Origin: Candidatus Magasanikiibacteriota bacterium
GTDB taxonomy: Bacteria; Patescibacteriota; Patescibacteriia; Magasanikbacterales; UBA922
Assembly (NCBI GenBank): GCA_003518365.1
Contig: DOYU01000022.1
Location: 24,095 to 88,094 of the forward strand
Length of the DNA: 64,000 nucleotides
Direction of reading: 5' to 3'
Shown here: piece after piece, positions 40,393-43,756 of the stretch
How the letters are laid out: each line of letters starts with the position of its first letter
Position numbering within the stretch: position 1 is the stretch's first letter
The notes under the pieces: generated by a model
Told to the model about the DNA's origin: nothing
What the model saw: only the letters and a program-made list of their open reading frames with translations
The model's database searches: none
Position numbers and translations under genes: made by a program

Positions 40393-41364
40393 TTACTCCA
40401 CCTTCAACAACACCACTTCCGGCGGATTGAACAACCTTGCGCGCGCGCCGGTTTCCCCTGTGCCGCTTGTGACAAATAATTGCGTGTCTGTATCAACCTC
40501 TACAAGCCCTTGATACCAATCTGCAGGAATGGCTTCTGCGATTCGACCGACAGGGCCAACAAATGGCAACCGAATTTGTCCGCCATGGGTATGTCCAGAC
40601 AGGATCAGATCGATCTTTTCTTTTGCTGCTAGCCATGCGGCTGCAGGATTGTGTATGAGTGCAATCGTTGGAATCTCAGTCATCGTCTCCTCAAGCGCAT
40701 CAAAGGCGAGCTTACCCGCAAGGTAGGAATCGCCCCCGAAAATCTGTATATCCTGTCCATGAATGGTCGTGGTCACGACATCGTTCACCAGATACGTGAT
40801 TCCCATAGGGGTCATGGCATCGTAGACCTGTGTGCTCACGTCACCGAGTAAAAATACAGGACCCTTTTTTCGACTCATACTGACACCGTATTCATGATTG
40901 CCATGAATAGCGTACGTCGGGATGCCGGCATCTACTAAGCGAGCGAGGGGAGCGAGCTCAAGTGTTTCGTCGGTTGGTCCATTTGCATTATCCACTTGAT
41001 CTCCTGCAATCATCACGATGTCTGGCTGAAGGCTGAGAATCCGGTCAACGATGCGATCCATATACACGGCTTTCTTGTACGGCCCTACTTGAAAGTCTGC
41101 AACAAGTGCAATGCGAATGGGTGTATTGATGCCAGGGATATCAATCGTTTGTTCGCGTATCACGAGAAACGTGGGTTCAATAAAACTGCCATAGAAAATG
41201 GTCGTTGCGCCAAAAAGGAGGAGAGTAACAAACAAAAAAGACCAACGTTTGTGTCGGTATTCCCAGCTCTGTATCCTCCTCTTCGTACTGTGGAGAATGA
41301 TTCCTGCTGGGACAATTGTCCCAACAAGAAAGATGGCGATCATCAGATCGTAGAAGATACGCAT
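40393..41364 (-). CDS. Membrane-anchored metallophosphoesterase of the calcineurin-like family. The true start is MRIFYDL at 41364, since the track's longer N-terminus would run antisense through the tRNA-Leu gene.
   Basis: The GDQVDN, GNHEYG and GHTHGGQ motifs. Confidence 0.8.
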   Translation of the reverse strand: MRIFYDLMIAIFLVGTIVPAGIILHSTKRRIQSWEYRHKRWSFLFVTLLLFGATTIFYGSFIEPTFLVIREQTIDIPGINTPIRIALVADFQVGPYKKAVYMDRIVDRILSLQPDIVMIAGDQVDNANGPTDETLELAPLARLVDAGIPTYAIHGNHEYGVSMSRKKGPVFLLGDVSTQVYDAMTPMGITYLVNDVVTTTIHGQDIQIFGGDSYLAGKLAFDALEETMTEIPTIALIHNPAAAWLAAKEKIDLILSGHTHGGQIRLPFVGPVGRIAEAIPADWYQGLVEVDTDTQLFVTSGTGETGARARLFNPPEVVLLKVE

Positions 41365-41367
41365 ATG

Positions 41368-41451
41368 TGCCCTGGGAGAGACTCGAACTCTCATGATGTT
41401 GCCATCACTGGATTTTGAGTCCAGCGCGTCTACCAGTTCCACCACCAGGGC
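41368..41451 (-). tRNA. tRNA-Leu(CAA), 84 nt with a long variable arm and no encoded CCA
   Basis: Folds as a 7-bp acceptor stem GCCCTGG/CCAGGGC, anticodon loop CTCAAAA, long variable arm TGATGGCAACATCATG, and T-arm GAGAG TTCGAGT CTCTC. Confidence 0.85.
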
Positions 41452-41457
41452 ATGTAT

Positions 41458-41733
41458 TTACTTTTTTAGACTATCACGTAACAGTAATTTTACCATACGT
41501 TTGCCTGTACTTGTTTTCAGATACGTTTCTCTTCTCAATGCATCTGTTTTTGAACAAAATGCTTCGTAGTACACAAGTTGGAATGGTCGATATGGTGCAG
41601 TTGATTGCACTTTTCCATCTGTATGTTCTTGCATTCTTCTTTTCAAGTCACTTGTTTGTCCACTATATATATTTCCACTACTTAATTGTAACAAGTATAC
41701 ATAGTGCATAGAATAGAAATGGATTTTGTCCAT
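41458..41733 (-). CDS. GIY-YIG nuclease family protein of 91 aa (URI domain, COG2827-like)
   Basis: YVYLLQLSSGNIYSGQTSDLKRRMQEH...YEAF...RRETYLK matches the GIY-YIG signature. Confidence 0.75.
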   Translation of the reverse strand: MDKIHFYSMHYVYLLQLSSGNIYSGQTSDLKRRMQEHTDGKVQSTAPYRPFQLVYYEAFCSKTDALRRETYLKTSTGKRMVKLLLRDSLKK

Positions 41734-41792
41734 GAACTAGAGCGAAGCTCAGTTCAGGACACCAGGAAGCGAGCTTTGCTCTGCTTCTCTGG

Positions 41793-41830
41793 TGAGTCCA
41801 GCGCGTCTACCAGTTCCACCACCAGGGCAT
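41793..41830 (-). repeat. A 38-nt exact duplicate of the tRNA-Leu 5' half (2 nt of 5' flank plus tRNA nucleotides 1-36, ending inside the anticodon)
   Basis: 41793..41830 is identical to 41416..41453. Confidence 0.85.
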
Positions 41831-42003
41831 TAGATAGTTTCTAAGCAGTCAATACTATAGCGAAAAATGGCAGGGTTGTCAATTTTGTGATATACTTTCA
41901 TTGATTTCACAGATCTGAAAGGATTACACTGATTTTTGCTATAAATAGCTTCATAAATTCTTTGTATATAGCAAAAAAGAGAGATCTGTTGCTGACATAT
42001 GAT

Positions 42004-42771
42004 ATGGCTAAAATTATTGCTGTTGTGAACCAAAAAGGTGGCGTGGGGAAGACCACGACTGCTATGAATCTCGCCGCTCACCTCGCTGAGCTTGGCAAAT
42101 TTGTGCTTCTCGTGGACATGGATCCACAGGGGAATGCCACGAGCGGTTTTGGTATTGCCGTGCATGAATTGGAGCATGGTGTGTATGAAGCCTTAGCAAA
42201 ACAAAAGCGTGTGCATGATGTGATCCAAAATACGTCCCACGAAGGGCTGCGCATTTTGCCGGCGACGACAAATCTTGCCGGTGCAAATATTGAGCTTGTG
42301 GACATGGATCGCCGTGAATTTCAATTGTCAGATCTTCTCGGAGAAGTGACGCATGCGTATGATTATATTATTATTGATTGTCCACCATCTCTTGGATTGC
42401 TCACGATCAATAGTCTTGTTGCTGCCAATGAACTCCTGATTCCTGTGCAAGCTGAGTATTATGCGCTCGAAGGATTGGGACAGCTTCTCAAAACAATTCA
42501 GCTTATCCAAGAACACATCAAGCCGAATTTGGAAGTGCTCGGTGCTGTGATTACCATGTTTGATAAACGTACACGACTTTCGACAGATATTATGGATCAA
42601 TTGTACAAATTTTTTCCTGATACGATTTTCCGATCAGTTATTCCACGTACCGTTCGTCTTGCCGAAGCCCCAAGTTTTGGACAGACGATTCTCCAATACG
42701 ATCCAAAAGGAAAAGGGTCTCGCGCGTATGAGCGGTTGGCGAGGGAGATTCTAGAAAAGCATCAGATGTAA
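42004..42771 (+). CDS. parA: Chromosome partitioning ATPase ParA/Soj. The true start is MAKIIAV at 42004, because the track ORF begins at an upstream TTG.
   Basis: NQKGGVGKTTTA deviant Walker A motif. Confidence 0.9.
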   Translation: MAKIIAVVNQKGGVGKTTTAMNLAAHLAELGKFVLLVDMDPQGNATSGFGIAVHELEHGVYEALAKQKRVHDVIQNTSHEGLRILPATTNLAGANIELVDMDRREFQLSDLLGEVTHAYDYIIIDCPPSLGLLTINSLVAANELLIPVQAEYYALEGLGQLLKTIQLIQEHIKPNLEVLGAVITMFDKRTRLSTDIMDQLYKFFPDTIFRSVIPRTVRLAEAPSFGQTILQYDPKGKGSRAYERLAREILEKHQM

Positions 42772-42889
42772 ATTACAAATTACTAATTACCTAATTCACC
42801 TAATAAAATTTCAAAATAGTATTTTCTTATTAGAATTTTTGCATGTTATTTTGAATGAGATAATTAGATGAATTAGAAATGTATAGTAT

Positions 42890-43756
42890 ATGGCATTAGG
42901 AAAAGGACTCGACTCCCTCATCCCCTCACAATCAAAACGCAGGTCGTTTCGAAAAGAAACAGAATTTTCTCCGTCTGCAAATGCTGCAGATCGGGTGTGG
43001 CATATTCCGCTCTCAGAGATCACCCCAAATCCAAATCAGCCACGAAAAGAATTTTCTCATACTGAAATGGAACAGCTTGTCGCTTCGATCAAAAAACATG
43101 GTGTGATGCAGCCAATCACGGTGACAGAAAAAGAGGATGGTGGGTATGAAATTATTGCAGGAGAACGTCGATTTCGTGCATCAACGATTGCTGAACTGCC
43201 AACTATTCCCGCATTGGTTCGCAGTGCGACGGAGCAAGAAAAATTGGAATTAGGACTGATTGAAAATATTCAACGGCAGGATTTGAATCCGATTGAAGAG
43301 GCATTTGCGTATCAACGGCTTACTGATGAATTTGGCTTAACCCAGCAAGAAATTGCCGATCAAGTGGGGAAAAGTCGTCCTCTGATTGCCAATACTATTC
43401 GATTGTTAGATTTGCCAGAACCTATCCAAAAGGGATTGATTGATGGACTGCTATCTGTCGGGAAAGCGCGCGCACTGTTGAGCTTGAAAGATGAAAAAGA
43501 ACAATTGAATATGTACCAAAGTATGATTGGCACCACTGCAACGGTGCGGCAGATCGAACAGGCCGTCGCAGGAAAAGGAGAACACTCTCGCAAAGGATCT
43601 GTCCGTCGTGACCAGCAATTGTCTCAAGCAGAAAAAATTATTGAAGATAGGCTTCGTGCAAAAGTGCATATCAGTGGAAAGGGCGAGAAGGGAACGATTC
43701 AGATCTCGTACTATTCAAAAGATGAGCTGAAGCGACTTATTGAAGAATTATCCTAG
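42890..43756 (+). CDS. parB: Chromosome partitioning protein ParB/Spo0J
   Basis: GERRFRA ParB box together with a helix-turn-helix. Confidence 0.9.
   Translation: MALGKGLDSLIPSQSKRRSFRKETEFSPSANAADRVWHIPLSEITPNPNQPRKEFSHTEMEQLVASIKKHGVMQPITVTEKEDGGYEIIAGERRFRASTIAELPTIPALVRSATEQEKLELGLIENIQRQDLNPIEEAFAYQRLTDEFGLTQQEIADQVGKSRPLIANTIRLLDLPEPIQKGLIDGLLSVGKARALLSLKDEKEQLNMYQSMIGTTATVRQIEQAVAGKGEHSRKGSVRRDQQLSQAEKIIEDRLRAKVHISGKGEKGTIQISYYSKDELKRLIEELS

Follow-up and report, generated by a model that had tools for sequence, protein, structure and literature searches.

In fungal mitochondria such as those of Allomyces, free-standing GIY-YIG open reading frames (ORFs) occur together with a replacement copy of the gene segment that has been displaced, a pseudo-fragment of the original being left behind, and small double-hairpin elements are found in the same genomes. 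We know of no link between those hairpins and a nuclease breakpoint. Among phages, experiments show that SegB, a GIY-YIG nuclease encoded at tRNA genes, drives tandem amplification of tRNA and segB by way of double-strand breaks and recombination (PMC13096335), and in the Candidate Phyla Radiation (CPR) the rRNA genes carry GIY-YIG-encoding insertions that are not introns, that sit at the tops or bases of stem-loops, and that were left unexplained (Tsurumaki et al. 2024, PMC11270868). Here we describe a locus in a 64,000-nt stretch of contig DOYU01000022.1 of a Candidatus Magasanikiibacteriota bacterium (the whole stretch is called the window below), in which the gene for a small GIY-YIG nuclease lies between an intact tRNA-Leu(CAA) gene and an exact, truncated copy of the 5' part of that gene.

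We favor, with a probability of roughly 0.6, the reading that the 377-bp repeat unit at this locus is a minimal selfish cassette, consisting of a double hairpin, a spacer and the nuclease gene, inserted in the anticodon arm of tRNA-Leu(CAA). The comparisons below support regarding the cassette as a free-standing nuclease-gene unit that would rescue its target by partial duplication, and its mobility is suggested by the presence of related cassettes at several unrelated tRNA targets, a pattern that agrees with what is generally expected of mobile elements. An initial annotation, made from the sequence of the window alone, had already proposed a minimal mobile element of GIY-YIG type, set in a tRNA gene whose 5' part is duplicated, and a profile match, empty sites in relatives and recurrence at many tRNAs now speak for that proposal. 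The full-text literature searched, in which few subscription journals are covered, describes no GIY-YIG cassette with a partial tRNA duplication, and we provisionally consider the arrangement undescribed so far.

Organization of the tRNA-Leu(CAA) locus

Coordinates are positions in the window, and the locus is read on the minus strand, along which the following features succeed one another.

41854..41882, minus strand: putative sigma-70-type promoter, TTGACA-17-TATAGT, matching 11/12 consensus positions
41793..41830, minus strand: pseudo-tRNA 5' fragment, an AT flank plus nucleotides 1-36 of tRNA-Leu(CAA), 100% identical to 41416-41453
41762..41792, minus strand: hairpin H1, CCAGAGAAGCAGAGC-AAA-GCTCGCTTCCTGG, from folding, the hairpin unit in inverted orientation
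41728..41761, minus strand: hairpin H2, TGTCCTGAACTGAGC-TTC-GCTCTAGTTCATGGAC, the forward-oriented hairpin unit, one T bulged out
41720..41727, minus strand: anchor AAAATCCA, where the tRNA sequence picks up again: remainder of the anticodon loop, then 4/5 bases of the 3' stem strand
41710..41719, minus strand: A+T-rich spacer TTTCTATTCT, 10 nt from the anchor to the start codon, from the sequence
41458..41709, minus strand: predicted gene for an 83-aa stand-alone GIY-YIG nuclease of Slx1/UPF0213 type, from PF01541 and database gene calls
41452..41457, minus strand: gap ATACAT, 6 nt from the stop codon to the tRNA, the last 2 nt being part of the repeat
41368..41451, minus strand: intact tRNA-Leu(CAA), from ARAGORN and a full-length Rfam tRNA match of 54.5 bits

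The locus is built on an exact 38-nt direct repeat (41793-41830 and 41416-41453, spacing 377). Its upstream copy is the pseudo-tRNA fragment, which ends past the second anticodon base, and its downstream copy takes in the first 36 nt of the intact tRNA-Leu(CAA). Given that an exact repeat of this length is expected by chance in 64 kb with a probability of only ~1e-14 (~2e9 position pairs x 4^-38), it is not a coincidence, and an assembly artefact is excluded by the recurrence of both copies at the 377-nt spacing in 10/10 contigs that encode an identical protein, drawn from independent assemblies at NCBI, JGI and ENA (annotated as Candidatus Magasanikbacteria, from groundwater). On both points, the exact repeat around the ORF and its being more than a chance match, the initial annotation holds.

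It had, however, let the duplicate stop in the anticodon, and here the sequence reads differently: a 65-nt double hairpin is inserted at tRNA position 35/36, after which the tRNA goes on with AAAATCCA. The region described at the time as a 59-nt spacer with two short hairpins does hold two hairpins (H1 and H2), but these extend over 65 nt, 41792-41728, and the likeness that had been noticed between the ORF start and the anticodon arm is real, being not a mere echo but the continuation of the tRNA at 41727-41720. Since the insert is preceded and followed by the same base, the breakpoint has an ambiguity of 1 nt and could be 34/35 or 35/36.

The non-coding parts of the cassette measure 65+18+6 nt, and between the repeats no ORF but the GIY-YIG gene has homologues. 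The window cassette has a single inverted repeat, the H1/H2 pair at its left end; it is flanked by the 38 nt of tRNA as a direct repeat and possibly has a 1-nt duplication around its double hairpin. A 23-nt leader separates the putative promoter from the pseudo-tRNA fragment, and no comparable promoter was found between the ORF and tRNA-Leu. By comparison with a related contig (L100, below), where the same promoter directly fronts the intact tRNA, the one at 41854..41882 is the promoter that the tRNA had originally, and it would presumably now transcribe pseudo-fragment, nuclease ORF and tRNA together as one unit.

The nuclease

The ORF had been called a GIY-YIG gene from its letters, and it matches PF01541 with an E value of 7.4e-15 (55.5 bits vs a cut-off of 22.6) over residues 9-78 of a 91-aa frame. 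That frame, the one given in the initial annotation, is indeed the longest (41733..41458), but its length is probably overstated: the ninth codon is an ATG, at 41709, that opens an 83-aa protein (MHYVY...), the database gene calls and all homologues start at MHYVY with 83 aa, and the first eight codons of the longer frame overlap H2 and the tRNA-derived octamer. Translation probably starts at 41709, which would make the eight codons upstream untranslated hairpin and tRNA sequence.

The only matches in the PDB are 1ZG2 (E 1.9e-10) and 1YWL (E 2.9e-7), two bacterial UPF0213 proteins that have been placed within the Slx1 family by superfamily phylogenomics (PMC1564403). The Slx1 family comprises minimal stand-alone GIY-YIG proteins, its enzymes are structure-specific, and it is regarded as vertically inherited and probably engaged in repair, with one fusion to a tRNA methyltransferase as a hint at RNA metabolism; the selfish GIY-YIG enzymes of homing and restriction have been assigned to the other lineage, UvrC+ (PMC1564403). 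From these matches the predicted nuclease belongs to the Slx1/UPF0213 family and consists of a single domain with no auxiliary domain. Its 83 aa leave no room for a C-terminal DNA-binding domain, which puts it outside the classical I-TevI/Seg definition, and the NCBIfam model TIGR01453 ('group I intron endonuclease') scores 23.8 bits vs a cut-off of 56.05, over the catalytic domain only.

Six residues (Y5, Y15, G17, R25, H29 and E49) are invariant over 9 homologues, and we take their catalytic roles to be those of their counterparts in I-TevI and UvrC. Given this invariance, the enzyme is probably active. Breakpoints at this and related loci fall in loops and at the stem bases of tRNA-gene stem-loops, which bears on the possibility of structure-specific cutting in the manner of Slx1. 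Two other affiliations were considered and rejected: a phage origin, for which there were only 6 distant IMG/VR matches and no PHROG family, and a defense system, for which PADLOC returned just a marginal match to a type II restriction enzyme model (E 0.0027).

Filled and empty sites in relatives

The parA and parB genes (41962-43756, plus strand) lie upstream of the cassette and diverge from it, and synteny with them made a comparison with empty sites possible. Contig L011 is filled and has the order of the window (parB, parA, cassette, tRNA-Leu(CAA), metallophosphoesterase gene), with a GIY-YIG protein 63% identical to that of the window. L100, a metagenome contig, matches L011 at 97% over the promoter, 99% over the tRNA and 88% (nucleotide identity) over the neighboring gene, and is empty: promoter, 16 nt, intact tRNA and neighboring gene follow one another, while nuclease gene, half-tRNA and hairpin are all absent. 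Between L011 and L100 there is, then, a presence/absence polymorphism at an orthologous site with flanks 88-99% identical. The more distant L102 and L103 are empty as well, their parB and parA being followed by a gap of 68 or 162 nt, tRNA-Leu(CAA) and the metallophosphoesterase gene. An empty site had been predicted for relatives, and these three contigs supply it, with the length polymorphism that goes with it.

The structure of L011 indicates which copy is the old one. Its promoter is joined to a 5' pseudo-fragment and its neighboring gene to a 3' pseudo-fragment, with the intact tRNA between, and since promoter and neighboring gene abut pseudo-fragments, these outer fragments are what is left of the resident tRNA gene. 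The third pseudo-fragment (L011 3504-3640), downstream of the intact tRNA-Leu, runs from the T arm to the 3' end, and its T loop contains a double hairpin. Five of the first 17 nt differ between the tRNA-Leu genes of the window and L011, and in each genome the pseudo-copies exactly match the local intact gene, an identity that points either to a recent insertion or to gene conversion still going on between the repeats.

Several smaller observations concern the genes on either side. The start codon of the metallophosphoesterase gene (41364) lies 3 nt past the 3' end of tRNA-Leu, as it does in the empty sites; the longest ORF of that gene (40393-41445, minus strand, 350 aa, GTG start) begins within tRNA-Leu and is so annotated in L001 and L005, and the ATG at 41364 is likely to be the start, as in L100. 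In L011 the call for the same gene (379 aa) runs through the third pseudo-fragment as a spurious N-terminal extension, in which IPTPGTQK occurs twice as the translated repeat of the tRNA 3' end. In L103 a short hairpin-like sequence, CCCTAAACCACATAGGGTTCAGGG, stands between promoter and tRNA-Leu(CAA) at 2355-2400, as the footprint of a former cassette or by chance. A RelA/SpoT-like gene lies farther out beyond parA and parB in the matching contigs, and a weak Rfam match within parA (c4-a1b1, E 0.066) is probably due to chance.

Recurrence at other tRNA genes

A profile built from 4 sequences was used to scan one genome per species, which gave 121 confirmed homologue loci, of which 80 (41-59% identity) were kept. 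The loci are mostly from Patescibacteria, the other labels being Lentisphaerae/Victivallis, Zixibacteria, Nitrospirota, Bdellovibrionales, Ignavibacteria and 'Gammaproteobacteria'. Over the 80 loci the density of tRNA genes is 0.61 per kb within 300 nt of the ORF vs 0.14 farther out, a 4.4-fold difference, and nearly every nearby tRNA (27/28) is co-oriented with the ORF. No other structured RNA genes were found beside tRNA-less homologues in 20 loci.

Exact-repeat analysis together with reading of the sequences revealed two layouts, and at least 10 tRNA species are adjoined by nuclease homologues with like anatomy. In class A, to which the window conforms, a 5' pseudo-fragment is followed by the ORF and by an intact tRNA 1-61 nt past the stop codon or overlapping it; the targets are Leu-CAA, Leu-TAA, Leu-TAG, Ser-CGA (in four lineages), Arg-GCG, Arg-TCT, Gln-CTG, Glu-TTC and Lys. 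Class B is the mirror image, with an intact tRNA, one or more hairpins, the ORF and a 3' pseudo-fragment, and is found at Ser-CGA, Tyr, Arg-TCT and Met, with related forms after Ser-GGA, Ser-TGA, Gln-TTG and Asn. In class A the duplication begins 0-7 nt from the tRNA 5' end, and in class B it runs to the tRNA 3' end. Units stand in tandem in L026 and L110, a remnant of an ORF 3' end lies upstream of the half-tRNA in L028, and three class A contigs stop right after the ORF, as expected if the repeats break assemblies.

Given that the outcome resembles an attachment site, we considered whether the locus might be the scar of an integrase-mediated island or prophage (attL/attR) deleted down to a small remnant. 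Williams is said to have described, in 2002, the anticodon and T loops as the classical crossover sites of integrases. Partial tRNA copies are the usual signature of integrase insertion (PMC9897764), and the description of the locus as a classic site-specific insertion scar is apt as to outcome, but no integrase accompanies it. With a unit of 377 bp in which an integrase or any other island gene is absent, a duplicated part that is 5' rather than 3', a compact GIY-YIG-only layout that recurs in dozens of loci, and a full island with integrase between the same repeats in none of 100+ loci, we regard such an origin as extremely unlikely.

Some of the loci show further features of their own. L014 (2381-2453) and L015 (1920-1995) encode an identical GIY-YIG protein, P0003, and differ upstream: tRNA-Pro(CGG) is intact in L014, as in L016, L017 and L018, and in L015 it has acquired several substitutions and escapes detection. 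A second difference lies downstream of tRNA-Ala(CGC), where L015, unlike L014, carries a pseudo-tRNA-Ala fragment that contains a double hairpin. In L034 (1860-2408) the nuclease gene lies between tRNA-Ser(GGA) and the gene for the signal recognition particle RNA (Rfam 86.5 bits), and a hairpin after the tRNA is followed by an 8-nt repeat of the tRNA 3' end, CTCCGCCA.

The hairpins and their positions

Class A pseudo-fragments are always broken by one or two G+C-rich hairpins, after which the tRNA resumes for 5-9 nt (19 in L051) before the spacer and the ATG; this post-hairpin anchor is present in L011, L024, L026, L028, L037, L051, L053, L054, L075, L087, L021 and L022. The insertions fall at few places in the tRNA. 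In the anticodon loop they are at 35/36 within 1 nt (the window, L011A/B, L015, L026, L028, L051, L053, L054, L087, L093 and L110) and in the T loop at 57/58 (L011C, L020, L024, L037 and L075), so that in both 7-nt loops the insertion follows the fourth loop base regardless of sequence, and others are in the D loop (L011A/B, L021, L022, L053 and L081). The pseudo-fragment terminates inside the 3' strand of the stem that bears the hairpin, and hairpins never occur within intact tRNAs.

The 35/36 position invites comparison with introns, and the initial annotation had considered a homing or retrohoming remnant. On an intron account the locus would derive from a group I intron that once contained a homing endonuclease gene, its ribozyme core lost and the hairpins its leftover helices. 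Patescibacteria tRNA genes are indeed rich in group I introns at 35/36 (PMC13011429), which is also where the hairpins sit, and the nuclease has its weak, sub-threshold match to the NCBIfam 'group I intron endonuclease' model. We nevertheless consider this origin very unlikely. Covariance-model searches for group I and II introns over 40800-42400 and 15 related loci returned only tRNAs and noise, there being no Rfam intron or ribozyme match, and no Rfam family for the hairpins, at E<=10 in the former and E<=1 in the latter; no reverse transcriptase is present, and the non-coding parts amount to only 93 nt, so that retrohoming is not supported either. The ORF lies outside the insertion, after the tRNA has resumed, and the base preceding the insertion is A, G, C or T across loci, where a group I 5' splice site would have U. 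T and D loops bear the same hairpins, which are dyad-symmetric repeats of one unit, the NCBIfam score of 23.8 bits is far from the 56.05 required, and the homing endonuclease genes reported in Patescibacteria tRNA introns are HNH, with GIY-YIG never mentioned (PMC13011429).

The hairpins themselves are well conserved. H1 folds with a DNA z-score of -6.9 and is identical at 29/31 nt to the H1 of L011 copy A, the two differences forming one compensatory pair, and H2 is identical at 34/34 nt to the H2 of L011 copy B, the second pseudo-copy. Between window and L011 the hairpins are 94-100% identical, the ORFs 66% (nucleotide level) and the tRNAs 78%; on these figures the hairpins are, of all parts of the cassette, the one under most constraint or the one exchanged most recently. 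A 33-nt unit, present in eight copies in the window/L011 family, aligns with 14 pairs, 96% paired, 10 of them changed on both sides, around an apex GAGC-TTY-GCTC-T with a bulged T. For this alignment the H1 hairpins needed reverse-complementing, and since H1 aligns only in that way, the double hairpin is one unit present twice in opposite orientations. A second, 40-nt double-hairpin family was counted on 6 loci (L075 and L051, misaligned by MAFFT, were left out) and has 16 pairs, 98% paired, with 5 changed on both sides and 0 on one side; its covariance model scores almost equally on either strand. Given the dyad symmetry and the absence of wobble intermediates, we infer, from what is a small sample, that the hairpins are read as DNA and not as RNA, and are recognized in that form.

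A role as RNA would be expected if the nuclease gene were an ordinary host gene with an RNA leader, that is, if half-tRNA and double hairpin were the structured 5' untranslated region of a housekeeping Slx1-like repair nuclease and the duplications by-products of selection for the leader, be it for processing, stability or regulation. The leader is strongly structured as RNA (z-score -3.5), the hairpins covary and are always upstream of the ORF, and the view of Slx1 proteins as vertical repair proteins, together with the tRNA methyltransferase fusion (PMC1564403), would suit a host function. It is hard to reconcile with this that the hairpins are one unit in opposite orientations scoring equally on both strands, as fits DNA recognition, that one-sided (G-U) changes are absent from the 40-nt family, and that 3' pseudo-fragments lying beyond the intact tRNA, on its downstream side and well away from the ORF start, contain hairpins too (L011C, L015 and L020). 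A host leader would not need to be rebuilt from another tRNA in each lineage, nor would it be expected to show presence/absence polymorphism, and we judge the leader explanation quite unlikely.

Hairpin type tracks the nuclease clade and not the tRNA target. One hairpin family corresponds to the clade of L014/15, L020, L024, L026, L028, L037 and L054 (53-82% identical), which is found at five tRNA species (Arg-TCT, Ser-CGA, Lys, Arg-GCG and Ala-CGC), and other families correspond to L021/L022, to L053/L087, to L051/L110 and to window/L011/L112.

Three other accounts of the hairpins were rejected. Pairing of the first hairpin arm with the target stem as a guide, judged by eye, fits the window, L024, L028 and L054 and was dropped as inconsistent since it misfits L053, L075 and L087; fold-back copies of the local tRNA do not agree with the finding of identical hairpin sequence in different tRNAs; and the apex motif GAGCWWHGCTC was found nowhere else in the 64-kb window, so that within the 64 kb it is confined to the cassette locus and does not behave as a genome-wide repeat of the repetitive extragenic palindromic kind.

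Sister elements with terminal inverted repeats

In 23 homologue loci without a nearby tRNA the motif CC(N)GGTAGTGAAAATTCGAC stands 24-37 nt before the ATG, and in 20/23 an inverted copy overlaps the stop codon. The resulting units are 297-327 bp long, with terminal inverted repeats (TIRs) of ~20 bp, CC(N)GGTAGTGAAAATTCGAC ... GTCGAATTTCTACTACC(N)GG, and are flanked by direct repeats of 4-5 nt, mostly TATG, often the start codon of the next gene (L023, L025, L029, L031, L032, L039, L040, L043, L045, L057, L065, L068, L069, L078, L085, L097 and L115). As judged from sequence, these sister units have the anatomy of transposons, with TIRs and an apparent target-site duplication, and a predicted 80-aa nuclease as their only gene, which lends independent support to mobility of the Slx1-type nuclease family.

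Beside full sister copies there are ORF-less pairs of inverted-repeat ends with a short hairpin between them, resembling miniature inverted-repeat transposable elements (L032, ~1900-1975; L042, L047, L052 and L071, within 130 nt upstream of the ORF). In L023 (~1940-1980) and L031 (~1950-1975) the sister elements lie at the exact 3' end of a gene ending ...VIEYAR*, and the inverted repeat supplies its last codons and stop; by its C-terminus this gene looks like that of RNase Y.

With these elements in view we can weigh the possibility that the nuclease gene is a long-term resident beside the tRNA gene whose occasional cuts there have set off local tandem amplification of tRNA plus nuclease, by microhomology or recombination, the units later decaying to half-tRNAs, with no movement between sites. 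SegB does make tandem units of tRNA-Tyr and segB, joined where the 5' end of the tRNA shares microhomology with the 3' end of segB (PMC13096335), tandem units exist in L026 and L110 and an ORF-3'-end remnant upstream of the half-tRNA in L028, and window and L011 keep the gene in the same synteny despite a protein identity of 63%. Such amplification would account for arrays, not for arrival: the presence of one nuclease/hairpin clade at five tRNA species in different phyla requires moves between targets, a close relative has the empty site L100, and the sister elements have TIRs and target duplications. We consider it unlikely as the whole explanation.

A possible mechanism and its difficulties

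If the locus is a selfish cassette, its history might be as follows. The original 5' part of the tRNA would be kept behind the promoter as a dead fragment ending ~8 nt past the hairpins, and a second copy of nucleotides -2 to +36, which stands right after the nuclease stop codon and is joined to what would be the original 3' part, gives a complete tRNA, so that the essential gene survives. At each related tRNA locus, too, part of the local tRNA is present twice and one complete gene is kept. Having no promoter of its own, the cassette would have its nuclease expressed from the tRNA promoter, and the RNase P cut at the tRNA 5' end, 6 nt past the stop codon, would free the mRNA or make its 3' end.

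The nuclease would cut tRNA-gene DNA by shape, as a structure-specific enzyme of Slx1 type might, since the breakpoints lie centrally in 7-nt loops and close to the 3' base of the stem that carries the loop; such loop and stem-base breakpoints occur in three arms and at least 10 tRNA species. The cutter might be a homodimer acting on the palindrome of the stem, or might cut hairpins extruded from a heavily transcribed gene. Repair of the break would then copy in the cassette from a filled allele (homing), now and then at another tRNA, and the flanking repeats would allow tandem arrays, precise loss, and gene conversion that keeps the copies identical. The hairpins could be the cognate DNA site of the nuclease, or the joined ends of an ORF-less derivative. 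More speculatively, if structure defined two staggered cuts, one at the base of the acceptor stem and one at that of an inner stem, the tRNA segment between them would become a long target-site duplication, and this would explain the origin of the duplication, its boundary at the tRNA end, and the tRNA bases between hairpins and ORF.

A number of points weigh against the cassette reading. An exact 48-nt promoter-flank-to-anticodon pattern found 0 matches to an empty allele of the window's own species among metagenome contigs, all 10 contigs with the identical protein are filled, and the cassette may be fixed and inactive in that species. L100 could be empty through precise loss rather than through never having been invaded, and since the same repeats would allow such loss it may be a revertant. 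About two thirds of the homologue loci have no tRNA nearby. The intact downstream tRNA is a remaining potential target, which is awkward for simple homing, and an 83-aa protein with no DNA-binding domain leaves specificity unaccounted for. The step that duplicates the tRNA segment at each new tRNA is likewise not accounted for, and a start of the duplication 0-7 nt from the tRNA 5' end is not obviously predicted by selection alone.

A wider proposal, which we offer tentatively as a possibility, is that these loci represent a new class of minimal DNA transposable elements whose sole protein is a Slx1-type GIY-YIG nuclease and whose ends are cognate hairpins or inverted repeats. One branch would be the ~315-bp elements with TIRs and TATG duplications, and the other would recognize the shape of tRNA-gene stem-loops rather than their sequence, cutting after the fourth base of 7-nt loops and at stem bases, with the tRNA segment as a target-site duplication that rebuilds the gene. 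This proposal, if true, would overturn the non-selfish view of the Slx1 lineage.

Were the cassette reading true, such units, at ~310-380 bp with an 80-aa nuclease, would be among the smallest autonomous mobile units in bacteria, and theirs would be the first Slx1-type GIY-YIG enzyme to serve as a mobility gene. They would invade an essential tRNA gene with neither intron nor recombinase, rebuilding it with a duplicated segment and borrowing its promoter and processing. The reading would also connect three observations in CPR/Patescibacteria, namely the GIY-YIG insertions in rRNA stem-loops, the anticodon hotspot at 35/36 and the abundance of small GIY-YIG ORFs, and structure-guided targeting would gain a testable model in a nuclease that reads DNA shape along with a hairpin co-evolving with it. 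There are consequences for annotation too: tRNA finders are misled by half-tRNAs and by hairpins in loops, contigs often break at such repeats, ORF starts are miscalled (91 vs 83 aa), and neighboring genes are extended into the tRNA.

Comparison with known systems

The cassette shares with SegB and the other free-standing GIY-YIG genes of T-even phages a location outside introns and next to tRNA genes, and tandem units joined at the tRNA 5' end. The logic proposed for it is also that of SegB, where a cut in the tRNA region is repaired by recombination and the gene is thereby spread or amplified. The Seg proteins, however, exceed 200 aa, have DNA-binding domains and belong to the UvrC/I-TevI lineage, whereas the cassette protein is an 83-aa Slx1-type domain alone; Seg genes are phage-borne and the cassette is chromosomal in bacteria; and SegB comes with no hairpins and does not sit inside a tRNA gene, while the cassette has a partial tRNA duplication and a conserved double hairpin.

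The rRNA insertions of CPR bacteria are similar in coming from the same bacterial group, in containing GIY-YIG ORFs and in being neither group I nor group II introns; the cassette differs from them in its tRNA target, in the rescue by a duplicated tRNA segment and in the hairpin module at the breakpoint. With the group I introns of Patescibacteria tRNAs (PMC13011429) it has in common the anticodon-loop site 35/36 and the phylum, but those introns self-splice in the sole gene copy, and the cassette has no ribozyme and leaves a truncated pseudo-fragment with an intact copy beside it. Integrase islands and prophages (PMC9897764) also leave one complete and one partial tRNA copy, with breakpoints in the anticodon or T loop; they measure kilobases, encode a tyrosine integrase and duplicate the 3' part, in contrast to a 377-bp cassette with no recombinase and a 5' duplication (3' in the mirror class).

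The fungal mitochondrial cases involve protein-coding organelle genes and nucleases with DNA-binding domains, where the cassette is found in bacterial tRNA genes. The closest relatives of the protein itself are the stand-alone Slx1/UPF0213 proteins 1ZG2 and 1YWL, with which it shares sequence family and a minimal single domain. That family has been described as vertical and repair-type (PMC1564403), whereas the members considered here behave as the sole gene of mobile cassettes.

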